A DNA stretch of 36,893 nucleotides from a bacterium (GCA_965233585.1 CBDDTI010000401.1:1-36893); one strand, 5' to 3'. Counted from the stretch's first letter, positions 1 through 22,975 are shown. Program-made: numbers and translations. The notes: generated by a model from the letters alone, not told the origin.

Positions 1-1502
1 CAGTATATCCTTATGTTAATAAGACAGCCCAGTGGATTTGGCGGGAAAAAAAATTTCAAAATCGTAGCTCCCTATGAATTTTTGATCATCAACCCTTCAA
101 AGTCGCTGGTTTTGAGAGCAAAGAACAGCTACTTAGCTCGGAAATGAAAGAGTGTCAACGTGGCCAACGTGGCGATCATCAACCCCTTCAAAGTCGCTGG
201 TTTTGAGAGCAAAGAACGGCTACGTAGCCCTGAAATTAAAGAAGATGGCATACGGTTCAAGATGGATCCTCCAAGAAAATACAAAAACTACAACGTTTTT
301 ACGCTGATTCGGAAACTCAACACGGTCGCCGGGTCGCCTAAAAAAATGGACAAGAAAAAGACTACGTTTTTACGCTGATTTGGAAACTCAACACAGTTTT
401 AAGAGCTTTGTTAAGAGCTTTACAGCTTTAGATCGTTGAAAGTGAGGCCAACGTGAACGGGGTCAGGACCTGAGATGACAACTTCATTCAAAAAATCACT
501 ATGTACGGCTTTAGATCGTTGAAAGTGAGGCCAACGTGAACGTGAACGGGGTCGGTACCTGAGACGACAACTCTCTCTCTCTTCATTCAAATTTCACTAG
601 CGTTGGTCGCTAAAAAACGGAAACTACTACGTACAGCTTTAAGTCTATTGTTGAAAGTGAGGCCAAAGACTCGTGAACTGGGAAGTGAGCGTTGCTATTA
701 CACATGATTAGCAAACCAAGACAAGAACAACTCCCAGAAGAGACTGTTAGACTTCTTACCCTCTTTGATTTTTGATTTCCCACCTATATACATGAAGTGT
801 TTATTGTCTAAAAATATATTTGTACAAAGTTTTCTCTAAAACACGAGTTTATAACTTTATATATCAATTCACGTCGTAAATAGCCTTCATTTCCCCTGAG
901 AACAAAAAGTAAACGAAACGAAACTTCTTCAATTTCCAAGCTAGTAGGCGTTGCTTGCTCTCAAAAAAAAACCAGCTCTGAAGTGGTTGATCGCCACGTT
1001 GTGAGAGGAAATTGAACTCTCTGAAGAAAGGTAGTTCAGGCAGTAGTAGTCGCTTTTGGGGTTGTTGGCCTCGTAGGGGTCGATGACGAACAGTCCGGAT
1101 CTCCGGAAATGAGTAGCGTGGCCCTGGCCGTGGCCGTTCACTCAGCCGTGGCCGTAGTAGTTGTTTTGGGGTTGTTGGCTTCAGAAGAGTCGATGACGAA
1201 CAGTCCGAATTTCCGGACCCGAATTTTGAATTTTTGTGGCCATCCTCTCTTCCAAGTTGCTTGGCCATCTCCTCTCTGAAGTCGCGTGGCCGTCCTCTCT
1301 TCCAAGATAGAGAGGTAGTTGAACTCTCTGAAGAAAGGCTAGGTCACAGTAGTTGTCGTTTTTGGGGTTGCTGGCCTCAGAAGAGTCAACGATCTCCAGA
1401 AATGAGTAGCGACCTAGGACTTGTAAGATTGGAATTTTTTTCGCCTTCGAACTTTCAAAATTTTTTTGGATTTTTTTGGAGGATGCAGCACAGAGTATTA
1501 TT
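1..1502. repeat. Host composite interspersed repeat into which the Polinton left end is inserted
   Basis: ~700-970 is an inverted match to ~34745-35030. ~920-1502 is an inverted match to ~29013-29570. 85-255 contains monomers of the 99-bp repeat at 31342-31817. No credible protein. Confidence 0.75.
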
Positions 1503-2038
1503 GGATGACGGGAGCGTGATTTTAGATGTTTTCGGCCCGAATTCATCTAAAAAAATCTAAATGCGTTCTAAATTCATCTAAATTCATCTAAATGCGTTCT
1601 CGTTGCAAGCAAAACGTCAACTGATTCAATCTAAAAGCATCTAAATGCACACCGATTTCTGGTGCGTGCACCAAAAGTTTGGTGCCTGCATTGCTGTGTC
1701 TAATGCTGGCATGAAAAATTTGGTGCGTGCACGAAAAGTTTGGTGCCTGCATTGCTTCGTCTAATGCTGGCATGAAAAGTTTGGTGCGTGCATGAAAAGT
1801 TTGGTGCCTGCATTGCTTTGTCTAATGCTGGCATGAGAAGTTTGGTGCGTGCATGAAAAGTTTGGTGCCTGCATTGCTCTGTCTAATGCAGGCATGAAAA
1901 AGTTGGTGCACGCACTAAAAATTTCATGCATGCATCAAAATTTTACTTGTCTGCATTACTTTTTCTGGTGCCGGGATCTCAATTTTGACGCTGGCGTGAA
2001 ATTTTAGATCCAGGCACCAGAATGTCAGCGGTCCATAG
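1503..2038 (+). repeat. Left terminal inverted repeat (536 bp)
   Basis: GGATGAC...GGTCCATAG is the reverse complement of 22158-22875. Contains 10-bp ATTCATCTAA repeats and four 61-bp units (TCTAATGC at 1699, 1760, 1821, 1882). Confidence 0.93.
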
Positions 2039-3559: not shown

Positions 3560-5152
3560 TTATTTAGGGTTTTGTATGGCTAGATTCATCATGATTTTTT
3601 CATTTGTTTCAAAATTAATCAATTCTCCGTCAAGTCTTTTTAACTGAAAATGCAACAAATCCAGTCGACTTGTATTACACTTTATGTATTCCAAATTTTC
3701 AAAATGCGTCGTCACATAATTGTCTTGTTCCTCGGCTCTATTAATTGGTATAACTTTTAATACAGGGTAAAACTCGTCTCCAATTACCGAGTGATTGACG
3801 AAATTGGCATAGCAGATCATCACTCCCGGATATAGATAGTGCGGATCTAGACGTTCGTCACTTATAAATTGATTACTTTCATCCGCCAAAACAATGTCAT
3901 CATCTTGACTTATTCCTAGCAATAATCTTATTTCATGCGGCACTCTTATCCTTACTACCAAGGAGCGATTGAATTGATTGCCGACCCGTTTTACTTTAAA
4001 ACGGTCTTTATGCGCGGAAATTTGAATGAGACTTTGTAAATCTTTGCTCATACCATTATACATGGCCTCGATTAATTCATCCGTTGTTTTGATAAACCTC
4101 TTCTCAATGCAAAAGCAAAATCGCATTGTTTCAATCATTACCCTGATTTTCACAGGTGGAAATGTTTCTGTTGGGTCAGGATTTTGCATTGGCTGTTGCG
4201 ATATAAATTCTTTTTTCTCCGGTCCCATAACAATATATTCTTCTTTGATTCCCAAAATGTTTTTAAATTCGGGCGGTATCAGCACTTTTACCTCAGGTGA
4301 TTTAAATTCGGCATCGTACGTCGTCGGTCCGGTGTAAATTACTCGAAAAAACATATCGGCCGATTCTTTTGTTTTCTCCGTTTGCCCAAATTCAACAAAA
4401 TTACGTACTACGCTGTCTCTTCCGTCGTTTAAGCAATTTAATAAATAAGCAATTGTTTTCCGCTGATCAAGTTTGACCTCGATTTCTTGCTTGAACGGGT
4501 CTGTACTTACTTTAATTTTCTTATCAAAAACGCTTAACGGAACGCTGTTAACACGATTTGGAAAGGAGATGTCGGCTAAGGCTATTTTAGCTCCTTCGTT
4601 TAAATAAATGGGATGGCTCAAATGTACCTCGAAATTGTTGTTTTTCTGCGCGGGTTTTATGTTGTCGCCCATTTTTGAGTCGACGCGAATGTGCTTTGTC
4701 AAATATGTCATCGCTCGTTTTGTTTTTCGCAAATGAAGTAAAACTAGACTCGGCTGACCCGATTTTAGTTTTAGAAGTTTGTCGGATGCGTCTAAAAACT
4801 CAATGCCCACTGATTTTATTGAAGTGTTTTGAATAGGATAATATCGTATGTTGTTTAAAGTATGGTAGAAATATTTCCGTTTTTTGCTTGAAGGCAAGTC
4901 GGCCACGCATAAGATGTGAGAATTCTCGTTTGAGCTTGTAGACACAATGTTGGATTTAACCTGCACCACGTCAAAAACAAAATCTTGTTTCACGTTTAAA
5001 TGCAGACCAAAAGCTACAACCCCAACTTCCCAATCTCTTCTTTTGTTTAATTCTAAATTTTTCGGTAAAAAATTGTTAAAACGCGTTAGCGTGTTTACGT
5101 AACAATCAGTGCTTGCGTTTGAAATGCAATATATAAGATGTCCTCCTTTCAT
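3560..5152 (-). CDS. Minor capsid (penton-like) protein, apparently two fused units
   Basis: N-terminal SNxSxxxYxNTxxxFxxxLPxxLxL..WEVG motif and C-terminal YxNxVxxSxIGD..PVLKxIP..FENLEY..GELINF motif typical of Polinton pentons. Lies next to the integrase. Confidence 0.8.
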   Translation of the reverse strand: MKGGHLIYCISNASTDCYVNTLTRFNNFLPKNLELNKRRDWEVGVVAFGLHLNVKQDFVFDVVQVKSNIVSTSSNENSHILCVADLPSSKKRKYFYHTLNNIRYYPIQNTSIKSVGIEFLDASDKLLKLKSGQPSLVLLHLRKTKRAMTYLTKHIRVDSKMGDNIKPAQKNNNFEVHLSHPIYLNEGAKIALADISFPNRVNSVPLSVFDKKIKVSTDPFKQEIEVKLDQRKTIAYLLNCLNDGRDSVVRNFVEFGQTEKTKESADMFFRVIYTGPTTYDAEFKSPEVKVLIPPEFKNILGIKEEYIVMGPEKKEFISQQPMQNPDPTETFPPVKIRVMIETMRFCFCIEKRFIKTTDELIEAMYNGMSKDLQSLIQISAHKDRFKVKRVGNQFNRSLVVRIRVPHEIRLLLGISQDDDIVLADESNQFISDERLDPHYLYPGVMICYANFVNHSVIGDEFYPVLKVIPINRAEEQDNYVTTHFENLEYIKCNTSRLDLLHFQLKRLDGELINFETNEKIMMNLAIQNPK

Positions 5153-5157
5153 ACTTG

Positions 5158-6237
5158 TTACGCCCGATTAATAACGCTATCTTCCGCAATCCAGCTAAGG
5201 TTTTTATAGCCTTTCCACTTCACCAACACCAACTTCTGCCCGGTTCTTTTATCTTTCTTCCTTCTCACAATTTTTTCAATGTGAAATAATTTCGGCGGCT
5301 TGGCCAGAGTCAGCTCATTAGCATAAAAATTTCCCTCCACCGTCTCGTCACCGTCCAGAGTTTCCAGCTCGTATGTAGGTATGGGTAATCGCGTAAACAC
5401 CCGTTTGATCTTGTAAATTTCTTCAGTAAATTGCTTATTGTAACCTCTGTCAAATTGAGCTCTGTAGTTACTTATTCTGACCGTCTGGCCTTTCTTAAAT
5501 TTAGGCGGTCGCCTCTTTATTTTCGCATAAGCCTCTTCTTGTTTCATTCGGACTTTGGGAGCGTTTTTTGCTTTTTCCGCATCAGCTGGACTCATACCGA
5601 TCATTCTATGTACGCGCGAGTTATACGTCTTTACTAAAGATTGAAGCACGTGGATAAATCGATCCGTACCCCTAGATGTCATATATTTAAACATTAGACT
5701 TTTTAGAGATCTGTTAAATCTTTCCACAAACGGCGCGTGCACAAAGTTGTCGCTGTGTAAAAGAGTAATGCCTTTACGTCGACAGTAGTCTTTAAAAAAT
5801 TTATTTTTGATCTCTAACCCTCTATCAGCTAGAATTTTTCGAGGCGGCTGGCCAGCCTTATTGACAATGGTTTTGAATCCTTGTAAAAAAACCAAAGCTG
5901 TCTTGTTTTTTATGGGTTCAACAAAGGCATATCTCGAAAAAATGTCGATCGCTGTCAGCAAGTAACGATAATTGTCATTCGCGTTTGCCATTTTCCCAAT
6001 TTCAACCAAGTCTATTTGGAATTGATATCTTTTGTAATAAACATAGGTTGGGTTCCTAGGTTTTGGAGCCTTAGGTTGTCGGTGCAGAGTATAGGTGTCC
6101 GACGCCTGCAGCCATTTCTTTATTTTATTTATGGGTATGGTCCCGTTAAAATGATTAAAAACGCGGTTCGGCGATGAAAAAGCAAAAGGCGAGCCGGGCG
6201 AAGTGTAAGCTTTTAAAAATTCGCGTTTAGTAATCAT
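5158..6237 (-). CDS. int: RVE (DDE) integrase with C-terminal chromodomain
   Basis: YTLH, FQIDL, LTAIDIFSRY, ADRG and VERFNRSLK motifs; chromodomain FHIEKI..LVKWKGY..SWI. ATG 6237 is preferred over the upstream TTG at 6267. Confidence 0.95.
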   Translation of the reverse strand: MITKREFLKAYTSPGSPFAFSSPNRVFNHFNGTIPINKIKKWLQASDTYTLHRQPKAPKPRNPTYVYYKRYQFQIDLVEIGKMANANDNYRYLLTAIDIFSRYAFVEPIKNKTALVFLQGFKTIVNKAGQPPRKILADRGLEIKNKFFKDYCRRKGITLLHSDNFVHAPFVERFNRSLKSLMFKYMTSRGTDRFIHVLQSLVKTYNSRVHRMIGMSPADAEKAKNAPKVRMKQEEAYAKIKRRPPKFKKGQTVRISNYRAQFDRGYNKQFTEEIYKIKRVFTRLPIPTYELETLDGDETVEGNFYANELTLAKPPKLFHIEKIVRRKKDKRTGQKLVLVKWKGYKNLSWIAEDSVINRA

Positions 6238-6655
6238 CCTCGTCGTCGTCGTTGTCGTCCTCAACATAAAACAGCGGTTTTTGTTTTGTTTTTCTTCTCT
6301 TACCGCTTCCTACCGCATGCGTGCTATTTTTTCTCTTGACCGGTCTCTTGGACGCCTGTGCAGGCCTACTCGCCTTACCAGCCAGTAAGATGTTTCTAGT
6401 CGCGGATTTTAATCTCTTTTTCGCAGCGGCTCCAACTGCTTTGCCGTCCAAGGCTTCCAGTGCGGTGTCAATGGCCGCTCGTCCCGCCTCTTTTTTCAAA
6501 TATCGTCCCGCGGATCTGACACCCTCGCTTCTCGCAATTTTACCGATTGTCTTTGCGGCGCCCTTCGCCACCGGAACCAACGACCGGAAAAGACTGCTAA
6601 AAATTGAACCTAATCCCGCCCCAGCTTGCACAGACGGACCACGGTGGTATCGCAT
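6227..6655 (-). CDS. Small basic core-like protein (pVII-like) with acidic tail
   Basis: QAGAGLGSIFSSLFRSLVP matches the QxGxGLGxxFxxL motif of Polinton core proteins. K/R/A-rich. Confidence 0.75.
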   Translation of the reverse strand: MRYHRGPSVQAGAGLGSIFSSLFRSLVPVAKGAAKTIGKIARSEGVRSAGRYLKKEAGRAAIDTALEALDGKAVGAAAKKRLKSATRNILLAGKASRPAQASKRPVKRKNSTHAVGSGKRRKTKQKPLFYVEDDNDDDEDDY

Positions 6656-6661
6656 ACTTTA

Positions 6662-7381
6662 TCAATTTTCAATTTTTTTGACGCACCTGCTTAAGGCCAT
6701 CGGACTAACGCCTAATTGCTCGGCTAAACGCGATAAGCTTTTCGGCTTTTCCTGATCAACCCTACTCCGTTGTTCTCTTAAAAAGACGTGCGCGCATGCC
6801 GCGATTAGTGTTTTTGGCGAAAAAACAAACTTTTTTTCGTGTTGCTTTACTTTCTCTCTAATTTCCTTCAACTCCTTGTAGCTTAGATTTAAAGAGTGAA
6901 GAAAATATTCGCACATTAAATTTGGGCTGTAGAAAGAGTCGTCGTTTTTAAGATATTGCCACACTTTGTCCTGCTTGACGCCGGTTATGGCACATAAATC
7001 TTTCATCGGTCGCGGCACCCCCGACTCTATAAGCGCGGTGTAGATGCACATTACCGCTAAACTTTCTAAACAAACACCTCTTTTCCCTCTTTTCCCGCTA
7101 GCGTCCCATTTTTTGGCGATGACGCGTTTTAAATCCGCGCATTCGATATTGCACTTATAGCATACCCTTTGCATTGTCTCATCAGTAAAATTGTTTTTGT
7201 CGCAAGTCACATCCTCGCTCATTTTCTCCGTTTTAATCGATTCGAGCCGATAGTCATACGGGGCATATAGCCGATCATGCATCACGAGCCCGCAATCTGT
7301 ACATACTTCACACCCGTTTGAAAAATCATCCACAATATTGTAATGAGAACAAGTCCTGTTGAAATTATGAAAACGAGGCAT
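6662..7381 (-). CDS. TFIIB: TFIIB-like general transcription factor (239 aa)
   Basis: Zn ribbon CSH..VDD..G.EVCTDCGLV. Cyclin repeat 1 AVMCIYTALIESGVPRPMKDL; repeat 2 SPKTLIAAC..SLSRLAEQLGVS. Confidence 0.88.
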   Translation of the reverse strand: MPRFHNFNRTCSHYNIVDDFSNGCEVCTDCGLVMHDRLYAPYDYRLESIKTEKMSEDVTCDKNNFTDETMQRVCYKCNIECADLKRVIAKKWDASGKRGKRGVCLESLAVMCIYTALIESGVPRPMKDLCAITGVKQDKVWQYLKNDDSFYSPNLMCEYFLHSLNLSYKELKEIREKVKQHEKKFVFSPKTLIAACAHVFLREQRSRVDQEKPKSLSRLAEQLGVSPMALSRCVKKIEN

Positions 7382-7424
7382 GTTTATTTCTCCGCACGCG
7401 CTGCAAAACTGAAACGCGAATCAA

Positions 7425-7985
7425 CTATCGATCGCTTTTATATTGTTTCAAAAAATCTATAATAAAGTCCAAACTATGTTTGACCGCATCTTCGGACTTG
7501 GCCCCGATGATTACCATCTTGCCTGTGGAAAATATTAAAACCGTGTTGGCTTCAAAAGTCACAAACATGCCTGGGAAACGTTCGGGATTGAAGCGTACTT
7601 TTTTCACGTAGCTCTCCTTCCGAAGTTTATTAAAAACGTCCGGCAGCGGTATCTCAAAGCCCGCACGAAAGGAACAAGTTAAATTGTTTATTTCCCATGT
7701 TTGCACAAAGAAACGATTGCTGATAATGTCCGTCAGCAGACTTAACGATATTTTTATATCCGCTCGCGATGGCACTTTGGTAATATTGACATGATATGAT
7801 TTGTTGTTTCCGCGGGTCTTGAAAATGGTGTAGACGTATTGTTTCCTCACTACCGTAAAATTACTAAAAACTTTTTGTGACACATCTTTATTTAAGGATA
7901 ACGGCCCCTCATCCGTAAGAATAATTGTGCAGCTAAGCTTTATATTTGTCACAGTGACGTGCTCCGTGTTGTCTAGAAATGTCAT
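7425..7985 (-). CDS. TBP: Divergent TATA-binding-protein-like protein (186 aa)
   Basis: C-terminal repeat INNLTCSF..FNPERFPGM..TVLIFSTGKMVIIGAKSE is clearly TBP-like. The N-terminal repeat is degenerate (VTNIKLSC..YTIF..HVNIT). Size matches the TBP core. Confidence 0.9.
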   Translation of the reverse strand: MTFLDNTEHVTVTNIKLSCTIILTDEGPLSLNKDVSQKVFSNFTVVRKQYVYTIFKTRGNNKSYHVNITKVPSRADIKISLSLLTDIISNRFFVQTWEINNLTCSFRAGFEIPLPDVFNKLRKESYVKKVRFNPERFPGMFVTFEANTVLIFSTGKMVIIGAKSEDAVKHSLDFIIDFLKQYKSDR

Positions 7986-9319
7986 CGTTGATTAATGGCG
8001 GTGTCGGCGGTTTAAATGTGGATTTCAATGAATTGCAGGGTGATAGTTTGAATGCGCATGCGACCCCCCTCGAAGACACGGATTTAATATCAGGTCGTAC
8101 TGTGCTATATAGTAGCGTGACTCCCGTCGAAGATTTAGAAGATGTTACGTTTTCAATTCCTTCCGACCCCGAATGCGCTTTTGTTTTAAATCAGACGAGG
8201 CTAGAGGGTTACTTTGTGGTAAAGACCGACAGCGGCGAGGGTGTAACAGACACTGACACGCCAACAATTACTAACCATTATTGCGCCGCATTATTCTCGC
8301 AAATTGAAGTCCACCTTAACGGAACTCAAATATGTGATTTGAGTGCCCCTCTTTCTTATTCGTACAAACACCACATTGACTTTCTCCTGTCCTATAACAA
8401 TAATGTATTAACAAATGTGGGACGGTCCGAAGGCTTTTGCCGAACGCACCACGACAAATGCTTTGACAATATTACCACGACCGGTAAAATGTGCCAATGC
8501 ATCGCGGAGAATCGTGCGAAAATAATAAACGACAAAAAAGTTTATTTTAGCTCAACTTTGCCCGCAGATATTTTTTACACCGACAAATATTTACCTCCGA
8601 ATGTGGAAATCACTGTTGTATTACGCAGGTTCAACCCATGTTTCGGGCTGCTTCAAGATAATCCGAACAAAGTCTATCGCATTCGTTTAAAGGAATTAAA
8701 ACTTCGCATGAGAAAAGTGTTACCGTGCGAGCGTGTGCGAAACAGGCTAAACGCCGAACTGCTAAAAGGTCGACCATTTTTTCTGCCTTTTAAAGACACG
8801 CAGATGAAGCATTATCTGATCCCGTCTGGTTCCCTTAGTTTCTCTGCAAATCACATCAACAATAGCGAGATGTTGCCGCAACAAATTATTTTCTGCATGC
8901 TTCGAAGCGACCTTTTTGCTAAGGGACCGAGCGATCAATTTCCCTTTAAATTTAAACACGCCGATTTAGCATCCGTCATTTTAAAAAACAATGGAAGACC
9001 CCTCTTGCCTAGACCTATAGAATGCAAGATACTTACAGGCGATTATATGGAATTGTACGACCATTTTCAAAGCAACGTCGGCGGCAGAAATTGTATTTCA
9101 CCCCAAGCTTTTACAGAGGGTCAGATGTTTCTCGCGTTCGACCTGACTCCGGATAAATGCCTATCCTTTCACAATCACGTCGGAGTGCCCGGAAATTTAG
9201 AACTAGACTTGACTTTTAACACCCCCACCAGATCCCCCTTAACCCTGATTTCTTACGCTATTTATAATGCTGCCATTTCCATCGACAGCAACCTTCAGGT
9301 TACCAAAATAAAATATTAA
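7979..9319 (+). CDS. Major capsid protein paralog 1 (double jelly-roll)
   Basis: Polinton MCP motifs LFSQIEVHLNG, DIFYTDKYLPPNV, LRMRKV, LPQQIIF, PFKFKH, AFDLTPD, GNLELDLTF. Confidence 0.88.
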   Translation: MSSLINGGVGGLNVDFNELQGDSLNAHATPLEDTDLISGRTVLYSSVTPVEDLEDVTFSIPSDPECAFVLNQTRLEGYFVVKTDSGEGVTDTDTPTITNHYCAALFSQIEVHLNGTQICDLSAPLSYSYKHHIDFLLSYNNNVLTNVGRSEGFCRTHHDKCFDNITTTGKMCQCIAENRAKIINDKKVYFSSTLPADIFYTDKYLPPNVEITVVLRRFNPCFGLLQDNPNKVYRIRLKELKLRMRKVLPCERVRNRLNAELLKGRPFFLPFKDTQMKHYLIPSGSLSFSANHINNSEMLPQQIIFCMLRSDLFAKGPSDQFPFKFKHADLASVILKNNGRPLLPRPIECKILTGDYMELYDHFQSNVGGRNCISPQAFTEGQMFLAFDLTPDKCLSFHNHVGVPGNLELDLTFNTPTRSPLTLISYAIYNAAISIDSNLQVTKIKY

Positions 9320-9388
9320 AATTGCACACCGCCGACTCCCTCTTTTTAAGAAGAACAGAAAACTACAGACTAGCATGCATTTTCGACA

Positions 9389-10723
9389 ATGACTGAAAAG
9401 GGTGGCATCGGAGGTCTAGGGTTCGAGCAGGACGATTTGACAGAACAAGCTCTTGATCTGCACGCGCCGCTCGGGGTCGATATAAGCCTTGAAAAAGGCA
9501 ATGATGTGGTCTACAACAGCGTTTCCAGCGTTTCAAACACCGGACCGATCGAATTCATCATCCCGCGAGACGAAGAGTGTTCCATCATTCTGGATCAGAC
9601 TAGATTAATAGGGCATTTCGTTGTCAAGACAGCAAAGGATGAAAATGTCGGACCCGACGATCGAGTCTTTCTGGCCAATAATTTCGCGAGCAATCTATTT
9701 AGCGCGGTTGAAATCTACATTAACGGTACTCAAGTCTGCGACTTGAGCACGGCAAATTCCTACCCTTTCAAAAACTTTATCCAGACCGAGTTGTCGTTTG
9801 ATAGAGAGGCCAAACAGAGTCAGCTAAGAGCCGAAGGTTATTTTGAAGAAAAAGAAAACGATATTGGAGCTTGCGAGCCCGGTATAAATCAGCGTTTAAT
9901 ACACCGTCGAAATCTTATACTTCACGGCAAAAAAGTTTATTTCTGCTCTCGATTGGGGGCGGATATTATGTATACGGATAAGTATATGCCACCGAATGTC
10001 GACATCAAGATTAAGCTTATTAGAAACAGTCCGACATTCGGTATTCTTCACGCCGAAGATGACAAATCTTTTAAAATCGTTTTAAAGGATTTAAAGTTGA
10101 AAATGAGAAAAGTTTTGCCGGTCGAGCAGCAGAGAAAGCATTTTAGGATGAAAATGTCTCAACAGCCCTGCTATATACCCTTTAAGCTGAGTCAGTTGAA
10201 GGTTTTTGTGATTCCAGCCGGCGTCACATCGTACACCGTTACCAATATTGCCTCACAAATACTGCCCAAACAAGTTATTTTCACCCTAATTCACAACCAA
10301 GCCTTGACGCACGATAGCAAATTCAACCCGTTCGACTTTCAACACTTTGATCTTAATTATTTCAATCTTATTAAAAACGGACAATGCGTCTTCCCAAAAG
10401 CTTTTCAGCCGGATTTTGATGATGATAACTACATGGACCTGTACAGACACATGTACGACAGCACGGGTTTCGGCATTTCAAATAGTTCTTGCGACATTTC
10501 GCCCGCGGTTTTTAAGAGAGGAAGATGTTTTCTAACTGCCGATTTGACCCCCGATCGCTGCAACAGTTTTCACATTCACCCCGACGAAAAAGGCAAGTTG
10601 GACTTGGAATTAGGCTTTAAAACAGCCAAGCCTCACCCCATCTACCTGCTAGCCTACAGCATTTTTAATTCCGGAATTAAAATAGAGGAGAACGGCCAAG
10701 TTGTTAGGGCCGAAGAGCGATAA
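9389..10723 (+). CDS. Major capsid protein paralog 2 (double jelly-roll)
   Basis: GPIEFII, NNFASNLFSAVEIYING, YPFKNFIQTEL, NPFDFQHF, PDF, DLTPD, GKLDLELGF. Confidence 0.9.
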   Translation: MTEKGGIGGLGFEQDDLTEQALDLHAPLGVDISLEKGNDVVYNSVSSVSNTGPIEFIIPRDEECSIILDQTRLIGHFVVKTAKDENVGPDDRVFLANNFASNLFSAVEIYINGTQVCDLSTANSYPFKNFIQTELSFDREAKQSQLRAEGYFEEKENDIGACEPGINQRLIHRRNLILHGKKVYFCSRLGADIMYTDKYMPPNVDIKIKLIRNSPTFGILHAEDDKSFKIVLKDLKLKMRKVLPVEQQRKHFRMKMSQQPCYIPFKLSQLKVFVIPAGVTSYTVTNIASQILPKQVIFTLIHNQALTHDSKFNPFDFQHFDLNYFNLIKNGQCVFPKAFQPDFDDDNYMDLYRHMYDSTGFGISNSSCDISPAVFKRGRCFLTADLTPDRCNSFHIHPDEKGKLDLELGFKTAKPHPIYLLAYSIFNSGIKIEENGQVVRAEER

Positions 10724-11208
10724 TGGCCGGTTTGAGCAACGTATTTCTAGATCGGTTTTTATCCCCACTTTGCAAGAATTTCATCGGCACCTTTGCAGTC
10801 GACACGTTACCCTCAAACTTGTGGAACACTAGCTGTTGCGCCATCGTCAATCTTTCGGTTTCAAGCCATCCCGGCAGTCATTTCATCGCCTTTTTTATTA
10901 ATAAGCAAAACTATTTGTATTATTTCGACAGCTATGCACTACCCGTGCCCGCCTATAATCACCACCTCATCCATTTTTTGAAAAAATGGGAAAATTGCGG
11001 CAGAATAAGACATGTCCTGGACCGATCGATTCAAGCTTTCGATTCTTTGTTTTGCGGGTGGTATGCTGCCGCATTTTGCATGTTTGTCAATGCATACGCA
11101 AACGTGAAGCCGCGACACTTTTGCACTTTTTTTAATCCCAATAATTTACGCGAAAATGAAAAACGCGTCAAACATTTAGTTAATTGTTTGCAAGTCAAGC
11201 TTTATTAG
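10723..11208 (+). CDS. Adenain-like cysteine protease
   Basis: IVN..PGSHFIA (His), YFDS (Asp), IQ..SLFCGWY (Gln, Cys). TAATG overlap with MCP2; AATAAA at 11240-11245. Confidence 0.93.
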   Translation: MAGLSNVFLDRFLSPLCKNFIGTFAVDTLPSNLWNTSCCAIVNLSVSSHPGSHFIAFFINKQNYLYYFDSYALPVPAYNHHLIHFLKKWENCGRIRHVLDRSIQAFDSLFCGWYAAAFCMFVNAYANVKPRHFCTFFNPNNLRENEKRVKHLVNCLQVKLY

Positions 11209-14443: not shown

Positions 14444-14538
14444 ATATAACAATTGTGTGTGTGTGTATATATAAAGATTAGAAGATACAACATTTTTTTC
14501 CTTTTTCAGAAAAAGTTTAAAAGCGAGAGAAAAAAAGA

Positions 14539-15174
14539 ATGACGCACAAGTGTGAAACGTGTCACATATCGTTTTCCAGAAAGAGTCGTCTTGCCAATCA
14601 TTTAAAATTAAAACACAGAAATCAAGCAAATCATAATGGTCGCGACAAGTTAAGAAAGTGCCCGTTTTGTGAACTTAAATACAGTGATAAGAACGAGTTA
14701 TCGTCTCACGTAGATTCGAATCACGCGGAATCAAGGGTATTTTCTAAAAGGCAAGGAGCCATTGGCGACAAAGTTTGCATTTTCCAACAAGAACTGACTC
14801 ACCTAAAAAGCTCTTTGCAAGATTTTTGCAACTCTAAGCAAACGATCGAAAATGTGTTTAATCTCGTTAAAAGTCAATTTACACATCGGGTGGTTTGTCG
14901 AATAAGTATAACAATCACGGCAGATTACGAGATACAGGGTTTAGATGAAGAAAGTCAGGGAAAAAGCGTCGACATCGATTCTTTCACGTTACGGTCAAAA
15001 GGCGTCGCGGTCAACAAATATCAAAGCGATGAGCAGATTCGAGATAGGATAAAGTCACTTTTGGCTGGATCGGTGGAGAGGGAAGACGATTTGTTAACTA
15101 GAGGTTCAGGTTGGCGATTTGCTCAACTTCAAAGTTGCAGCGTTTTAATCTATGACTGTAGCAGTATTTTTTAA
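14539..15174 (+). CDS. Two C2H2 zinc fingers plus terminal-protein-like domain (normally the pPolB N-terminus)
   Basis: CETC..HLKLKH and CPFC..HVDSNH fingers. RGSGWRF motif characteristic of the Polinton pPolB N-terminal region. Confidence 0.8.
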   Translation: MTHKCETCHISFSRKSRLANHLKLKHRNQANHNGRDKLRKCPFCELKYSDKNELSSHVDSNHAESRVFSKRQGAIGDKVCIFQQELTHLKSSLQDFCNSKQTIENVFNLVKSQFTHRVVCRISITITADYEIQGLDEESQGKSVDIDSFTLRSKGVAVNKYQSDEQIRDRIKSLLAGSVEREDDLLTRGSGWRFAQLQSCSVLIYDCSSIF

Positions 15175-15176
15175 TA

Positions 15177-18100
15177 ATGAACAGCGACTCTGTAAACGTG
15201 CCCGAGTATTTATTAAAGTGTCGAAGTGTTTTATGGAACAGAAAATACGATGAAAAGAATTTTCTATATTGTGTCATAGGACATCTTTGGCCGGAAACGG
15301 CAAACATCAGACGATGCGAAAAAATTCCAAAGGAGTATGAAAGTAAATTTAACTTGCAGGGTTTAACCTTTCCCCTGCAGTTTAGCCAGATTAGCAAGTT
15401 TGTTCGAATTAACAAGCACCTACCGTTACGTATAAGAGTTCTTTTTGAAGGTGAACATCAACTGAGTGTTTTAGACGTTTTCTCCAATAGATCTGGCGAG
15501 AAAAATAAGAACAAAAATACGCTAAATTTGCTAATGATTAAAAGTGATTGTCAAATTTCATCGGCCAATAAAGACAGCATTGACGTAAATGGCATTTCCA
15601 ACGTAAAAGACCTTGAGCATCAGCACCATTTTTTCACTATTGCTAATTTAAATGGCTTTCTGAACAACCGAAAATCTGCTATGACCAAAGGAAGACGGCA
15701 TAGAAGTCAGTTTTATTTTTGTGACAGCTGTTTAAGAGATTTTCGTTCGCGCAAGAAACAAAAATTACACGAAAAAATCTGTCAAATGGATAAACAAGCG
15801 GTGATTTATCCAGAAAAGGGCAGTGTCTTGAATTTCGATAAGCAAAGAAATGCTTTTAAAGCACCTGTAGTGGGATTTGCTGATTTTGAGTGTTTTATGG
15901 AAAAGTCAGAGCAAGAAGCAAAAACATGTAAAACATGCGGAAAAGCGTGGGTGACATGCGAATGTCAAGTGTCGGGATGCGCTGAGCTAAGTAAACATCG
16001 AGCTTGCGGCTATTCAATTTGTTTTGTCGATTCGGAAAACGAAGTATTTTATCAAGAAACGTACAGTGGAAAAGACGCTGTGGAAAATTTTCTATCAAAG
16101 CTGGATTATTTCGAAGAATTAGTGGAAGCGCGAAAGCAACGGTTCAAGAACACATCTCAAATTATAGCGAGCAAACATGATTGGGAAGAGTACCACGCCG
16201 CCACGCTATGTCATATTTGCAAAAAAGATTTTGATTCAGGCTCGCGATTATATAAAAAAGTGGTTGATCATGATCACGTCACCGGAAACATTGTTCAAGC
16301 GGCGCATTCTATTTGCAATCTGCAACGACAGGGCCCATTTAGAACACCTATATACTTTCACAACGCCAAGGGGTAAGTACAGACTTTTTTAATATTTATA
16401 ATCCTTGACTTGAGGGAAAGTCATTTTAAATTTTTTTAATTTTAAGATATGACATAAATCTACTAGTAGAAAAATTGGACAAAGAGGCTAATCTGATGGC
16501 GAGTAACCAAGAAAAGTTTAGGACAATCACTATTGGAAAATTTCAAATTAGGGATTCTCTAGAGCACGTGCCATCCAGTCTTGATGCGCTCATGACCGAT
16601 TTATGCAAGGATGAGACGTTTACCTTTCCGATTCTCAAACAATTCGAGCCTTACAAGAGGCTGTGGACGCGACAAAAGGCGAAAGGTTTAAAATTATTGA
16701 AAAGAAAAGGAGTATATCCGTATGAATACTTTTCATCATATGAGTCGATTAAAAACAGTCAATTTCCGCCAAAAGACGCTTTCTACTCGAGATTGAGCGA
16801 AGCCCACATCTCAACCGAAGATCATAAGCACGGCTATGAAGTGTTCAAGTTTTTTAATTGTAAAAATATGGACGACTACATGAAGTTATATTGCGGACTG
16901 GACGTGATTTTGCTGGCTGAGATTTTTGTAAAGTATCGAGAAATGGTGATGAAGCACTTTGAGTTGGATCCCATCTACTATTTAGGTATACCTGGCTTGT
17001 CATTTGACATCATGCTTAAAATGTTTCAAAATGAAGAAAGAAAAGACGAAGAAGAGATTAGTCCTGATTTAATGTCGAAACCACCGGGCTCATTGGACTT
17101 GTTTCACGATCCGGCAATGGAACAGTTTTTTACACGCGGCATTAGAGGAGGGCAGAGTTTTATAGCTACCAGACAAGCGACGGGTCAGGCCGATCCTAAA
17201 GCGAGCGGCGAGCATTTACTATATGTAGATGGTAATATTTTTTATTAAACGTCAAAGAAAAAAAGATTGATTAAAATTACGATACATTTTCAGCTAACAA
17301 TCTTTACGGCAGCATGGAAACACGCATGCTGCCGGTGGGTAATTTTAAGTGGGTGCCAAAAAAGGAGATAAAAACATGGACGGACAAGGACATTTTGAAT
17401 TTGCCTTCGCAAAGCAGGATTGGCTATGCTTTTGAAGTGGATTTGCACTATCCAAAAAAATATCATGAGGTAAATAATTGTTTCTGCTAAACACCAACTG
17501 CTAGAAAAATTTTTTTTATTTATTTTGCAGAGAGATGATCAATTTCCTTTGGCTCCTTACACTGACACAATAAACTTTGATGATCTGTCACCGTTTAACA
17601 AACAACTTTTGAAGAAGCACTGTCCGACTGATTACAAAAACAAACGTTACAGTTCGCGAAAGCTTCTTGCCACATTCTACCCGCGACGTAAATATGTCGT
17701 CTTGTTAGATAATCTAAAGTATTATTTGAGGCGAGGGCTGAAGCTTACAAAAATCAGACGAGCGGTCAAGTTTGAGCAAAAAGACTTTTTAAAAAACTTT
17801 ATCACAAAAATTACAAAATTAAGGTCGGAGGCAAAAACTGATTTTGAATTACGTCTCTTCAAGTTGTTTGCCAATTCCACATTTGGCAAATTTATAGGTA
17901 AAATAAAGTAATGGCTCCCTTTTTTCACAATAAAATGTTTAATTTTTTTCAGAGAACGCGCGAAACTACATCGAAATCGTATTGTGCCACAATGAAAAGA
18001 AGCTGAGAAAGACTTGCATGGGTCAGCATGTTTCGAATTTGAAAGTCATAAACGAAAACCTTGTGGCTGTCATGAAAAAACCGGCCGTTATTGAAATGAA

Positions 18101-18740
18101 GAAACCGTTGGCGGTGGGGTTTGCGATTTTGGAACTATCCAAACTCTACATGTATCGATCGTACGACAAATTTAGACGTTACTTTGGAACGGAGAATCTA
18201 AGGTTGTGCTTTTCGGACACAGACTCGTTTCTGTTTCAAGTAAAATGTCAAAATTTAGTTAAAAAGTTAAAAAGAATGGAACACATGTTCGACTTCTCAA
18301 AATACGATAAAGATCACGAGTTGTTTGACGATAGCAGAGCCAATCATTTGTTTTACTTCAAAGACGAGCTAAAAGGAAAGGCCGCAATTACTGAATTTAT
18401 CGGCTTAAGGCCAAAATGTTACAGCATGACGGTCAAGGATTTGAAAACCCGAGGAGCCAGCGTAAAGAAAATTTGTAAGGGCCTTAAAAAAACTAGTATT
18501 AAAAATCACTTGACCTTTGAGGATTATAAAAAATGTTTAAACGAATCAACATTGGTATATAAGCCTCTTGTTAATATTAAATCAAAGAATCACAGAATGT
18601 CAACAACCTACCAACGGAAAATTGCTCTATCTGCCATGGACACCAAACGTTATGTGCTTTCTTGTGGAAAGTGCACTTTGGCCTTAGGAAGTTGTCATGT
18701 AAAAAAATGTTATAAACATGAATGTAAGGAAATCAAATAA
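15177..18740 (+). CDS. polB: Protein-primed family B DNA polymerase, 5 exons (15177-16372, 16447-17231, 17294-17469, 17531-17897, 17953-18740; 1103 aa)
   Basis: Splicing four GT-AG introns restores HNAKG|YD, YVD|ANNLYG, YHE|RDDQFPLAP and KLFANSTFGKFI|EN. Also ADFE (ExoI), RKGVYPYEY, YCGLDV, SDTDS and an endonuclease VII-like CHIC..DHDHVTG..HSICNL insertion. Confidence 0.95.
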
Positions 18741-18802: not shown

Positions 18803-19489
18803 ATGGACGGATTTGATTTGCGCTTTAAGCTTCCATCTAACTTACTCGCGGTAGGTCCCACTTCTTGCGGAAAAACGTCATGGCTAAAAAAACTGGTTGA
18901 AGATAGGGCCGTAATGTGCTCGCCCGTTCCGGAATGTATGATTCTATTTTACAAAGAATTTCAACCGACCTATGCTGATATGGAGCGGGGGATGAACGAT
19001 GACGCGCGTGAAAAGAGGTTTTGCAAATTTTCATCCATGCCAGAATCGGTTGAAGAGATGAAAGATATACTGGAAACGTTCCCTAGAGCTCTTCCGAAAA
19101 TTGTGGTATTTGACGATTTTCTTGATGAAGTAGGATCGGTGCTAAAGCACTTTTTCACGGTTTTAACGCATCATTATAATTGTTTGACAGTTTTTTTGTG
19201 TCAGAACATGTTTAGCGCCAAAAGCGAACTCAGAATGCTCAGCATCAACTCGCAGTACATGATTTTATTCAACAATCCCAGAGACCGTAGCGCCGTCTCG
19301 CACCTGGCTAAACAGGTGTATCCGGGTAACGTGCATCGGCTAAACGATGCATATGCGGCAGCAACCGGTGAAAGACCTTATGGCTATTTACTGCTGGATT
19401 TTCATCAGCAGCAAAATAATTTGGTTCGATTAAGAAGTCATATTTTTCCGGACGAACAGCCTACAAGGGCGTACAACGTACGCACGTAA
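18803..19489 (+). CDS. Genome-packaging ATPase (A32/FtsK-like)
   Basis: Walker A VGPTSCGKT, Walker B IVVFDD, HH..LCQN, FNNPRD, PYGYLLLD, RLRSHIFP. First ATG at 18803. Confidence 0.93.
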   Translation: MDGFDLRFKLPSNLLAVGPTSCGKTSWLKKLVEDRAVMCSPVPECMILFYKEFQPTYADMERGMNDDAREKRFCKFSSMPESVEEMKDILETFPRALPKIVVFDDFLDEVGSVLKHFFTVLTHHYNCLTVFLCQNMFSAKSELRMLSINSQYMILFNNPRDRSAVSHLAKQVYPGNVHRLNDAYAAATGERPYGYLLLDFHQQQNNLVRLRSHIFPDEQPTRAYNVRT

Positions 19490-19873: not shown

Positions 19874-21384
19874 AAAAGAAACAGGAAGAGGACGTATCCA
19901 CCATGTTTTTGGTGCCGAAACGAATTTACCTTGCCGTGAGGGAGGTCATTAGCGAAGATGACAAGCTTAATCAATTAGATCAATTGAATAAAGGTACAAA
20001 TTATATAGAAGACGCTATTCAATTTAAGCAGCAGAAATCCTACAAGACACAACCGGAAGATTTGAAGAAAACGGTTTCAACTTTGGTAAATACGTTCAAT
20101 AACATTGAGCAGCCAGCACAGATCGAAATAAACTCCTTGCCTGCTCGAAACAGCGAAGAACTCTCGCAAGATGGTTTTACTTCTGTCCCTCCATCAAGCG
20201 GAAGCCAGCTCGATGGTCCTAATTTCATCTTTCCACCTGTAAATCCAACGGAAGCGGAAAACGTAAAACATCAAAAGGAAATAACGCTTTCGCATCAGGA
20301 AATTGCATCGGAAAATTTACTTAATAACGAGCCTCAGCCTCAACATTGCGAACCATCAAACATCGACTTGAAAAAGAAAAACAACGTTCCGCCAAAACTT
20401 AGATGCCCGTTTTGTAACTATGCAACCTACTCAAGGGTATATTTTCTTATGGAACATTTGCGTAATAAACACAACTACCGCGCTAGTTTGGAAGAAGAAA
20501 GATCAGCAAGAGAAACATTGGAAAAGGCCAAAATTGAGCGCAATTCAAACAAAACCAAGGAACCTTTGCCATCTTTTCGCGGCAAAAGAAAAAACATTAG
20601 TGTCGAGGATGAAAGCGGCATTCCATTAAAGCGGCGAAAACGTGATTGTTTAACTAAAAATTACGATGAAAATGAACCACTTTCGAAATTAAGACGCAAT
20701 GTAAAAAATAAAAAATTAAATGCAAAACCAACAAAGAAAAAGGTAAAAAAGTCAACTTTTGATGAAAACGAGCCACTTTCTAAATTAAGACGTCAAGGTG
20801 TAAAAACGAAGAAAGAAAAGAAAGAATCAAGAAAATTAACTGTTGATGAAATACCTAAACAAGATGGGAAGCTTTTTAAATTACGAAAAAACCCGTTTTA
20901 CATGAAGCCTTATAAAAAATACAATACGAAGAAAGAAAAGAAAGAATTAAAAAAGTTGACTGTTGATGAAATACTTAAACAGGATGGGAAGCTTTTTAAA
21001 TTACGAAAAAACCCGTTTTACAAGAAGCCTTGTGAAAATTACGATGAAAATGAACCACTTTCGAAATTAAGACGCAATGTAAAAAATAAAAAAATAAATG
21101 CAAAACCGACAAAGAGAAAGTTAAAAGAGTCGACTTTTGATGAAAACGAGCCACTTTCTAAATTAAGACATCAAGGTGTAAAAACGAAGAAAGAAAAGAA
21201 AGAGTTAAAAAAGTTGACTGATGATGAAATACAGCTTTTTAAATTACGAAAAAACCCATTTTACAAGAAGCCTTATAAAAATTACGATGAAAATGAACCA
21301 CTTTCAAAATTAAGACGCAATAGTAAAAAAAAAAACCCGTTTTACAAGAAGCCATTTCCTAAATTGATTGTTAGAAAGTTTTAA
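19870..21384 (+). CDS. Lysine-rich repeat protein with one C2H2 finger (504 aa)
   Basis: ATGA overlap with the upstream ORF; N-terminal MFLVP; CPFC..HLRNKH; five DENEPLSKLR repeats; AATAAA at 21408-21413. Confidence 0.75.
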   Translation: MKKKQEEDVSTMFLVPKRIYLAVREVISEDDKLNQLDQLNKGTNYIEDAIQFKQQKSYKTQPEDLKKTVSTLVNTFNNIEQPAQIEINSLPARNSEELSQDGFTSVPPSSGSQLDGPNFIFPPVNPTEAENVKHQKEITLSHQEIASENLLNNEPQPQHCEPSNIDLKKKNNVPPKLRCPFCNYATYSRVYFLMEHLRNKHNYRASLEEERSARETLEKAKIERNSNKTKEPLPSFRGKRKNISVEDESGIPLKRRKRDCLTKNYDENEPLSKLRRNVKNKKLNAKPTKKKVKKSTFDENEPLSKLRRQGVKTKKEKKESRKLTVDEIPKQDGKLFKLRKNPFYMKPYKKYNTKKEKKELKKLTVDEILKQDGKLFKLRKNPFYKKPCENYDENEPLSKLRRNVKNKKINAKPTKRKLKESTFDENEPLSKLRHQGVKTKKEKKELKKLTDDEIQLFKLRKNPFYKKPYKNYDENEPLSKLRRNSKKKNPFYKKPFPKLIVRKF

Positions 21385-22240
21385 GAAAAACAAGATAAAA
21401 AGATAAAAATAAAATTTTCATATTTTTGCAATTTCCTTAACTATTTAGTAACAGCATTCCGTTGAAGTTTATAGCCAAAAAAGAAAAGAAAAACCCAAGT
21501 TATTGAGCACGTTTCTTCGTCTATGGACCGCTGACATTCTGGTGCCTGGATCTAAAATTTCACGCCAGCGTCAAAATTGAGATCCCGGCACCAGAAAAAG
21601 TAAATGAAATACTAAAACATGGGAAGCTTTTTAAATTACGAAAAAACCCGTTTTACAAGAAGCCTTGTGAAAATTACGATGAAAATGAACCACTTTCAAA
21701 ATTAAGACGCCGTGTAAAAAATAAAAAAATAAATGCAAAACCGTCAAAGAGAAAGTTAAAAGAGTCGACTTTTGATGAAAACGAGCCACTTTCTAAATTA
21801 AGACATCAAGGTGTAAAAACGAAGAAAGAAAAGAAAGAGTTAAAAAAGTTGACTGATGATGAAATACAGCTTTTTAAATTACGAAAAAACCCATTTTACA
21901 AGAAGCCTTATAAAAATTACGATGAAAATGAACCACTTTCAAAATTAAGACGCAATAGTAAAAAAAAAAACCCGTTTTACAAGAAGCCATTTCCTAAATT
22001 GATTGTTAGAAAGTTTTAAGAAAAACAAGATAAAAAGATAAAAATAAAATTTTCATATTTTTGCAATTTCCTTAACTATTTAGTAACAGCATTCCGTTGA
22101 AGTTTATAGCCAAAAAAGAAAAGAAAAACTCCCAAGTTATTGAGCACGTTTCTCCGTCTATGGACCGCTGACATTCTGGTGCCTGGATCTAAAATTTCAT
22201 GCCAGCGTCAAAATTGAGATCCCGGCACCAGAAAAAGTAA
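20966..22240 (+). repeat. ~637-bp tandem duplication (20966-21603 and 21604-22240)
   Basis: The ORF 3' end, its UTR and the first ~82 bp of the right TIR are repeated with scattered differences. Confidence 0.9.
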
Positions 22241-22875
22241 TGCAGACAAGTAAAATTTTGATGCATGCATGAAATTTTTAGTGCGTGCACCAACTTTTTC
22301 ATGCCTGCATTAGACAGAGCAATGCAGGCACCAAACTTTTCATGCACGCACCAAACTTTTCATGCCAGCATTAGACGGAGCAATGCAGGCACCAGATTTT
22401 TCATGCACGCACCAAACTTTTCATGCCAGCATTAGACGGAGCAATGCAGGCACCAAACTTTTCATGCACGCACCAAACTTTTCATGCCAGCATTAGACAA
22501 AGCAATGCAGGCACCAAACTTTTGGTGCACGCACCAAATTTCTCATGCCAGCATTAGACACAGCAATGCACGCACCAAACTTTTCATGCACGCACCAAAC
22601 TTTTCATGCCGGCATTAGACGGAGCAATGCAGGCACCAAACTTTTGGTGCACGCACCAAACTTTTCATGCTGGCATTAGACACGGCAATGCACGCACCAA
22701 ACTTTTGGTGCAGGCACCAGAAATCGGTTGACATTTAGATGCATTTAGATTGAATCAGTTGACGTTTTGCTTGCAACGAGAACGCATCTAGATGAATTTA
22801 GATGAATTTAGATGAATTTAGATGAATTTAGATGAATTCGGGCCGAAAACATCTAAAAACAGGCTGCTGTCATCC
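22158..22875 (-). repeat. Right terminal inverted repeat (718 bp)
   Basis: CTATGGACC...GTCATCC. Seven 61-bp units (GCATTAGA at 22307-22673, period 61) and five 10-bp GATGAATTTA-type units. Confidence 0.93.
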
Positions 22876-22885
22876 GTTTTTACTA

Positions 22886-22975
22886 CAGTAATTCTGCATT
22901 TTTTTCCTTAAATTACCTGAAAATCTACTGGGTGCGGCTTATAATCAGGTGCGCCTTATAATCCGGAATTTACGG
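22886..22975. mobile_element. Short Tc1/pogo-like MITE remnant
   Basis: Flanked by TA. Right end GGTGCGCCTTATAATCCGGAATTTACGG resembles pogo/Tigger-type ends; left end CAGTAATTC is degenerate. Confidence 0.45.

Follow-up and report, generated by a model that had tools for sequence, protein, structure and literature searches.

A TBP–TFIIB gene pair in a lineage of Polintons and a candidate class of late promoters on host RNA polymerase II

Orthogonal TBP–TFIIB systems, in which a stirrup position of TBP co-varies with TFIIB, have been proposed in double-stranded DNA viruses (Ravarani et al. 2020, PMC7221094); the text of that paper, available to us in excerpt like the other sources cited here, mentions no polintons, virophages or adenoviruses. 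Chrysochromulina parva virus BQ1 has no RNA polymerase and encodes both TBP and TFIIB (PMC12085832). In the herpesvirus associated with Kaposi's sarcoma (KSHV), late genes carry a TATTWAA box about 30 bp before the start, and the TBP mimic ORF24 acts within a six-protein viral pre-initiation complex (vPIC) (PMC6541308). The poxvirus factor VITF-3 is described as a TBP/TFIIB ring loaded by the viral RNA polymerase (PMC12917281). In this work, we describe a stretch of 36,893 nucleotides (GCA_965233585.1, CBDDTI010000401.1:1-36893; hereafter the window) containing a Polinton/Maverick element of about 21.4 kb, which carries neighboring genes for a TBP-fold and a TFIIB-like protein. Other Polintons have been reported with VLTF3 instead (PMC11131425).

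The first-pass annotation of this locus supposed that such a pair lies outside the standard Polinton gene set, and our literature search, which was thin on subscription journals and Repbase Reports, found no Polinton with a TBP–TFIIB pair. A lone 'TBP' label stands in a figure legend on MELD viruses (Starrett et al. 2021, PMC8502044; preprint 10.1101/697771); TFIIB is not mentioned in the excerpted text of that paper, and the readable text of its supplement contains neither TBP nor TFIIB. The pair was likewise not met in the consulted passages of other papers on Polintons and Polinton-like viruses or of Bamfordvirae preprints. The timing of Polinton gene expression is essentially unstudied in the literature examined.

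We propose that host machinery makes the pair early and that the pair then directs the host's RNA polymerase II (Pol II) to late promoters of structural and packaging genes, a reading to which we assign a probability of about 0.68. Three genes stand at its center:

6662..7381, minus strand: TFIIB-like protein, 239 aa (open reading frame (ORF), Pfam, family profile, predicted model)
7425..7985, minus strand: TBP-fold protein, 186 aa (ORF, Pfam, AlphaFold2 model)
7979..9319, plus strand: major capsid-like protein 1, 446 aa, head-to-head with TBP

The names capsid-like, penton-like and basic core-like are family labels, which we take to apply here. The TBP and capsid 1 ORFs meet head to head with a 7-nt overlap (the gap is 0-60 nt in freshwater relatives), so that the promoter of each gene must sit within the coding sequence of the other.

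The TBP and TFIIB ORFs are adjacent, co-oriented and uninterrupted, with a 43-nt gap in the window. As first annotated, they are intact and lie inside the terminal inverted repeats (TIRs), between the integrase/basic-protein and capsid-like blocks. The same assembly contains 41 TBP and 41 TFIIB loci, 39 of each being full length, with the two genes adjacent and in constant order in the contig maps and with 29-100% identity to the window proteins. Beyond this assembly, one IMG/VR locus (L001) and 70 metagenome loci were collected. TFIIB follows TBP directly in 62 of the 63 outside loci with at least 250 nt downstream; the sole exception is a weak TBP match without Polinton neighbors. The gene order protease-capsid / TBP-TFIIB-basic protein-integrase-penton is constant, and searching with a family profile gave 254 protein clusters (90% identity). 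For 23 elements, the trees built from TBP, TFIIB and capsid (the last a quick version) agree in the main split and the well-supported pairs; some deeper branches differ or stay open. Pairwise ratios of nonsynonymous to synonymous substitution (dN/dS), taken from non-independent pairs and given as medians within dS bins, lie at 0.14-0.18 (TBP) and 0.15-0.24 (TFIIB); the integrase has 0.06-0.10, the protease 0.13-0.26 and penton 0.19-0.25. In sister elements the pair is thus present and under purifying selection, neither absent nor decaying. Decaying host pseudogenes are ruled out by dN/dS, intactness and synteny, and mis-assembly by the 41 assembly loci together with the 70 independent ones.

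The pair is absent from the other Polinton-like elements of the assembly (C304, C492, C581, C657, C322, C315, C606 and C493) and therefore marks one lineage; judging by its distribution and conservation, it is a core module of that lineage rather than a stray capture. Flanks of some of these pair-less contigs resemble a different kind of organism, and the assembly may be mixed. No host TBP or TFIIB was found by tblastn and hidden Markov model searches in this partial (12 Mb), apparently mixed assembly, and a phage collection gave no match to the pair. Scans of IMG/VR returned a single element with the pair, L001, a 20.6-kb Polinton which sits in a giant-virus (GVMAG) bin; it is probably mis-binned, because its gene order is that of the 20-kb Polintons. 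Inside its pPolB (protein-primed DNA polymerase B) region lies an ORF that we presume to be dUTPase-like. In an ESM Atlas cluster of TFIIB-like proteins, the two classified members point to Preplasmiviricota, and such proteins may sit in labelled records. Tandem or nested element copies were seen on single contigs (C435, C328, C670, C112, C224 and C212).

The TBP-like protein is matched by Pfam TBP at E 8e-17 over residues 98-182 only, that is, over the second repeat. The annotation's view of the first repeat as degenerate holds for the sequence and fails for the fold: an AlphaFold2 model built on a 95-row alignment (mean predicted local distance difference test score, pLDDT, 94.9) forms a full two-lobed saddle, in which the first lobe is complete as modelled. 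This model aligns to human TBP over 163 residues (Z 16.7, root-mean-square deviation 2.0 A), whereas the next unrelated fold reaches a Z of 7.7 only; Foldseek was run as well. On the DNA-binding face, phenylalanines are kept at F43 (76/95, with Tyr in 15), F55 (92/95), F137 (95/95) and F152 (94/95), and the central Asn pair at N14 (89/95) and N101 (93/95). With the help of profile alignments, these residues are presumed to be the intercalating phenylalanines and the Asn pair of TBP. The protein is a candidate for binding and bending a TATA-like box. Identity to cellular TBP and TFIIB is about 20%, and the N-lobe of TBP is diverged.

Changes in this family fall at fixed positions. Two Val beside the Asn pair are replaced by Lys and mostly Thr. 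The stirrup motif FNPERFPG, which had been picked out at first reading, occupies residues 132-139. Of the two TFIIB-binding acids of the stirrup, the first is Asn (82/95) and the second Glu (68/95), so that the two-acid arrangement is not kept; at the first-Glu position, Asn occurs in 231 of 254 single-motif family proteins, whereas Glu occurs in 22 of 29 two-motif, cell-like TBPs. It is this position at which viral TBPs are reported to co-vary with TFIIB, and the stirrup pattern seen here is typical of them (PMC7221094). F141 and T148 of the window protein occupy the positions of yeast I194 and V203, where the family has Phe (88/95, three residues after the Pro) and Thr (86/95, four before the last Phe). 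I194F and V203T are two of the three altered-specificity changes of the yeast mutant TBPm3, in which position 2 of the TATA box is relaxed (PMC1636458). The third TBPm3 position is Ile or Leu in the family, and Thr at that place is also found in 9 of 29 cell-like proteins. G at box position 2 was found in four related loci. These residues suggest altered reading of the box and leave the motif described below, TAT[CGT]TAA, unexplained.

The TFIIB-like protein matches Pfam Zn_Ribbon_TF (E 1.2e-4) and the TFIIB repeat (E 0.034), each below the Pfam cut-off, and as a single sequence it matches human TFIIB at E 2e-6. With a 43-row family profile, the E values are 5.7e-19 for human TFIIB, 3.3e-7 for archaeal TFB, 1.2e-6 for yeast TFIIB, 1.6e-4 for Brf1 and 2.7e-4 for Brf2; by these scores, the family is closer to the TFIIB of Pol II than to Brf1, Brf2 or archaeal TFB. 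The zinc ribbon (CxH...CxxC; ligands C11, H13, C27 and C30) is invariant in 43/43 rows, the model (pLDDT 79.6, with residues 39-62 below 50) contains two cyclin folds, and the top matches of a fold search with it are TFIIB chains in Pol II initiation complexes (E 5e-7). Structure prediction, suggested by the first-pass annotation, has thus returned both folds, and its description of a TFIIB with ribbon and cyclin folds and no recognizable B-reader is borne out. In the profile alignment, human residues about 57-101 (~45 residues), which form the B-reader and B-linker, have no counterpart; in 43/43 rows, a ribbon-to-core linker of 21-41 residues with low pLDDT stands there. The protein is derived from TFIIB and of Pol II type, yet not a full TFIIB. 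Prediction of the TBP–TFIIB complex passed weakly, at 0.41 against 0.00 for the best control (contact agreement at least 53%, partner pLDDT at least 68), a score level at which 18 of 157 solved complexes and both passing mismatches fall; a like complex has already been solved, and the weak pass may stem from this likeness. Two variants of the gene were seen: the TFIIB of L043:905-1924 forms an in-frame fusion with the basic core-like protein that follows it, and that of L042:2959-3741 has a duplicated zinc ribbon.

The upstream regions of related loci contain two motifs that sort by gene class. The motif set comprised 38 non-redundant related loci, including about 29 freshwater relatives, with L067 and L068 left out as weak, probably cellular TBP matches; start codons were assigned by script, positions -140..-5 of the ATG were searched, and 200 dinucleotide shuffles served as background. 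A variant box, TAT[CGT]TAA, precedes the major capsid gene in 28/37 loci (shuffle mean 4.7), the penton gene in 11/24 (2.4), the ATPase gene in 9/18 (2.3) and a 117-aa gene in 8/19 (2.1), with p<=0.005 in each case. This enrichment is strand-specific, and the boxes of penton and ATPase cluster between -35 and -56. One more gene, which was not part of the discovery set, carries the variant box in 6/14 loci (1.0 expected, p 0.001). The box stays at background before pPolB (1/20), TBP (4/34), TFIIB (0/30), integrase (0/27), protease (0/27) and the basic protein (5/29). The canonical TATAWA shows the opposite distribution: it precedes pPolB in 14/20 and TBP in 11/34 loci (p<=0.005 each) and the capsid gene in only 2/37. 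In 7 of the 11 TBP genes with TATAWA, a TCAKT initiator lies at the usual distance. The element-specific late or capsid promoters that the first-pass annotation had envisaged thus gain support from two motif classes. An excess of reverse-strand boxes before TFIIB (11/30) was rejected as a promoter signal; it falls mostly on a single coding position in the TBP stirrup (I-K-Y-N) and is treated as coding. Of the 361 strict sites in 18 long elements, 60 sit 28-120 nt before a long ORF, compared with 20.5 expected, the discovery genes being included in this count.

The capsid box falls within the TBP gene, in antisense orientation, which allows a test by synonymous codons. At a site picked by protein sequence alone, the Leu codon of the box is TTA in 30/31 genes, compared with 200/502 other TBP Leu codons (p 7e-11), and the following codon (Asp/Asn) ends in T in 27/31, compared with 421/691 elsewhere. 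Such skewed synonymous codons mean that there is constraint on the DNA as such. That the capsid box results from protein-level constraint alone is excluded by this test and also by non-coding copies of the box before penton, ATPase and capsid 2.

The candidate promoter sites in the window are as follows:

7889..7896, plus strand: TATTTAAG, strict late box candidate, 90 nt before capsid 1, antisense in the TBP coding sequence
9343..9350, plus strand: TTTTTAAG, one-mismatch late-box variant, non-coding, 46 nt before capsid 2, kept in C213 and C58
6777..6784, minus strand: TTTTTAAG variant, weak candidate within the TFIIB coding sequence, 129 nt before the basic core-like gene
7408..7442, minus strand: canonical TATAAAAG, 61 nt before the TFIIB ATG, with the initiator-like motif TCAGT following 30 nt later
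14466-14475, plus strand: canonical TATA of pPolB

From its sequence and position, TATTTAAG at 7889..7896 is a candidate late promoter box of capsid 1, and TATAAAAG with TCAGT at 7408..7442 would be a candidate host-type early promoter of TFIIB. In freshwater relatives (L004-L065), the TFIIB ATG mostly lies inside the last TBP helix, with an overlap of about 30-45 nt, which suggests coupled expression of both genes from one TATA+TCAGT promoter.

The proposed program would run in two steps. Host TFIID and Pol II would first read canonical TATA(+initiator) promoters, giving pPolB and the element's TBP and TFIIB. The GT-AG introns of pPolB indicate that the element is read by nuclear Pol II. The element TBP would then bind the variant box TAT[CGT]TAA[AG], which differs from TATA at position 4; the element TFIIB would dock on the altered stirrup of this TBP and bring host Pol II through its conserved zinc ribbon. 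With the B-reader missing, start-site choice and promoter opening would be left to Pol II and further factors of the host. In this way, the genes for capsid, penton and packaging would be switched on late and independently of host regulators of TBP. In agreement with the first-pass annotation, no RNA polymerase family was matched by Pfam among the 20 element ORFs scanned, and initiation factors other than TBP and TFIIB were not recognized among them either.

Several observations weigh against this two-step program. In the 18 long elements, 301 of 361 strict sites lie away from the zone 28-120 nt before a long ORF; the 7-mer alone is therefore insufficient, and most sites are not promoters. The motif was first spotted by eye and tested afterwards, on script-assigned starts and on loci that are related. 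The strict box is absent before the capsid gene in two single-capsid marine subfamilies (C328 and C212), and in the window it is found at capsid 1 only: one-mismatch variants stand upstream of capsid 2, of the basic protein and of the ATPase, and the penton and 117-aa genes have no box, either strict or with one mismatch. The box position relaxed in TBPm3 is position 2, whereas the motif departs from TATA mainly at position 4. With the TBP profile, archaeal TBP obtains a slightly higher score than eukaryotic TBP. A control that speaks in favor of the program is C304, a Polinton without TBP: its capsid-, penton- and ATPase-like ORFs are preceded by canonical TATA at -27 to -30, and neither capsid nor ATPase has a variant box within promoter range. 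This control is, however, a single distant element.

Other explanations of the pair have to be weighed against the same data. It might be a general initiation module for any element gene wherever host TBP or TFIIB is limiting or blocked, with the box read by another factor. The near-canonical DNA-binding face of TBP, the many strict boxes away from gene starts and the few strict boxes of the window copy would agree with this. The box, however, sorts by gene class, being present before structural and packaging genes and not before pPolB, integrase or TFIIB, with canonical TATA distributed in the opposite way, and TBP carries fixed changes at base-reading positions; we therefore regard a general role as unlikely. 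The family-wide deletion of the B-reader and linker would also suit a decoy that shuts off the host, in which TFIIB fills the Pol II dock while the diverged TBP fills AT-rich promoters or soaks up regulators, and viral targeting of TFIIB is, in the excerpted literature, a known theme. A decoy would need neither a matching cis-motif in the element nor the core parts that both proteins keep while travelling with the capsid module, and this makes such a role improbable.

To a similarly low degree, we credit the idea that the pair or its box serves another polymerase, either the RNA polymerase of a large DNA helper virus, in a virophage-like manner, or host Pol III. Many boxes end in TAAG, which is reminiscent of late promoters in baculoviruses, factors of Brf type can have short linkers, and L001 is filed in a giant-virus bin. 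Against this, TFIIB is far nearer to the Pol II factor than to Brf1/Brf2, the spliceosomal introns of pPolB and the TATA+initiator promoters point to nuclear Pol II, and L001 has a 20-kb Polinton gene order that speaks for mis-binning. A use outside transcription, with the pair marking sites for the integrase (as TBP-Brf1 does for Ty3) or acting in replication or packaging, would fit the co-oriented block that the pair forms with the integrase, and the Ty3-TFIIIB structure, as excerpted, shows that such tethering exists. This seems to us very improbable, since the polymerase-binding zinc ribbon is invariant, the motif stands before gene starts inside the element and not at its flanks, and the integrase has a chromodomain of its own. 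Late promoter selection by the pair on host Pol II remains the reading that we prefer.

By its gene content and ends, the carrier is a Polinton/Maverick of adintovirus type, and its length falls within the 15-25 kb range of these elements. Its remaining features are listed below:

about 1503-2038, no strand: left TIR (repeat comparison)
3560..5152, minus strand: minor capsid/penton-like protein, no significant Pfam match
5158..6267, minus strand: retroviral-type integrase with chromodomain (Pfam rve E 4e-10, Chromo E 2e-4)
6227..6655, minus strand: small basic core-like protein, no significant Pfam match
9389..10723, plus strand: major capsid-like protein 2, 444 aa, the more conserved copy
10723..11208, plus strand: adenain-like maturation protease (Pfam Peptidase_C5 E 0.1, below cut-off)
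14539..18740, plus strand: pPolB region, several ORFs (Pfam DNA_pol_B_2 E 2e-7, Endonuclease_7 E 6e-4, zf-C2H2)
16373-16446, 17232-17293 and 17898-17952, plus strand: GT-AG introns of pPolB, with a further donor at 17470
18803..19489, plus strand: A32-like packaging ATPase (Pfam Pox_A32 in 10/11 family members, best E 2.5e-10)
about 22158-22875, no strand: right TIR (repeat comparison)

The ATPase copy of the window itself has no Pox_A32 match in Pfam, unlike 10/11 family members. Pfam DJR-like is matched by one of 12 capsid family members (E 3e-4), and a sequence profile of the capsid family gave no match against PDB. The two capsid-like proteins are 39% identical. Their tandem arrangement (7979-10723) is restricted to the subfamily of C401, C58, C98, C593 and C93, each copy has its own candidate late box, and capsid 1 evolves faster, with dN/dS of 0.15-0.35 compared with about 0.05 for capsid 2. 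The zinc-finger N-terminal part of pPolB (14539-16376) is a separate ORF in marine subfamilies (a stop, with an ATG 2 nt later) and is fused in L001 and freshwater relatives. Contigs of four runs from one study span the region with no joint at the pPolB introns, which speaks neither for nor against expression. Across copies, one terminus keeps a TGTAGT-type end and the other is usually short by the last 8-15 bases (window 1490-1510 and 22860-22890). Target-site duplication was inspected by eye over 13 contigs; the left ends are ragged, with no clear 6-bp duplication. Tandem arrays of 61 bp occur in both TIRs, with 4 copies on the left (1660-1935) and about 7 on the right (22158-22812), and internal repeats lie at 20606-21999, in and 3' of a 504-aa ORF.

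If the proposed program is correct, it would be the first model of late promoters for Polintons and evidence of virus-like temporal programs in them. The orthogonal viral TBP–TFIIB idea would become directly testable with two genes and a predicted DNA target, and the pair would provide a natural case for testing how Pol II initiates when no B-reader is present and possibly a compact orthogonal expression switch. TBP and TFIIB, used as giant-virus markers, also occur in Preplasmiviricota-type elements and can mislead binning, as with L001. The most far-reaching formulation, which we consider evenly poised between right and wrong, is that of an undescribed, widespread aquatic Polinton lineage with the smallest known orthogonal Pol II initiation system. 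This would consist of an altered-specificity TBP and a B-reader-less TFIIB with a private TAT[CGT]TAA box, and it would run a late program on host Pol II, convergent with the herpesvirus TATT system, from a capsid promoter antisense in the TBP gene.

Compared with known systems, the pair resembles the cellular TBP–TFIIB of Pol II in fold, zinc ribbon, cyclin repeats and DNA-binding face; it differs in its ~20% identity, diverged N-lobe, Asn in place of the first stirrup Glu and deleted B-reader/linker. Two of the three residues of the yeast TBPm3 mutant are natural here (PMC1636458). With VITF-3, as excerpted, it shares a viral TBP/TFIIB pair for one temporal gene class, but the element has no polymerase and its TBP has a near-canonical fold. 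With the Polintons and adintoviruses of the excerpted account by Starrett et al. (2021, PMC8502044), the element shares TIRs, pPolB, an rve integrase with chromodomain, an A32-like ATPase, an adenain-like protease and capsid-like genes. The systems of beta- and gammaherpesviruses are similar in that a TBP-fold protein uses host Pol II for late, structural genes whose box deviates from TATA at position 4, which here is C, G or T. ORF24, according to the excerpts, itself binds Pol II and acts with five unrelated viral proteins, whereas a 186-aa saddle and a true TFIIB are found here; the element, whose longest ORF has 530 aa, contains no ORF24-like large TBP mimic with five partners. By analogy, it may work like a vPIC but is none, and the likeness to the TATT system is, as far as tested, convergent and not homologous. 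Nucleocytoviricota (CpV-BQ1, chloroviruses and prasinoviruses) share, in the excerpted sources, a viral TBP and TFIIB, an altered first stirrup Glu and a proposed redirection of host Pol II; the carrier here is instead a 20-kb integrating Polinton, the two genes of the pair are neighbors within a constant block that also contains capsid and integrase, and identity to giant-virus TBPs in the fold search is at most 21%. In its mode of action, the pair would thus resemble that of giant viruses and, at promoter level, the TATT system of herpesviruses, while belonging to neither, and its DNA target is predicted. The idea of an orthogonal viral TBP–TFIIB is already in print; what is new is the carrier, the small size and the matching promoter class.

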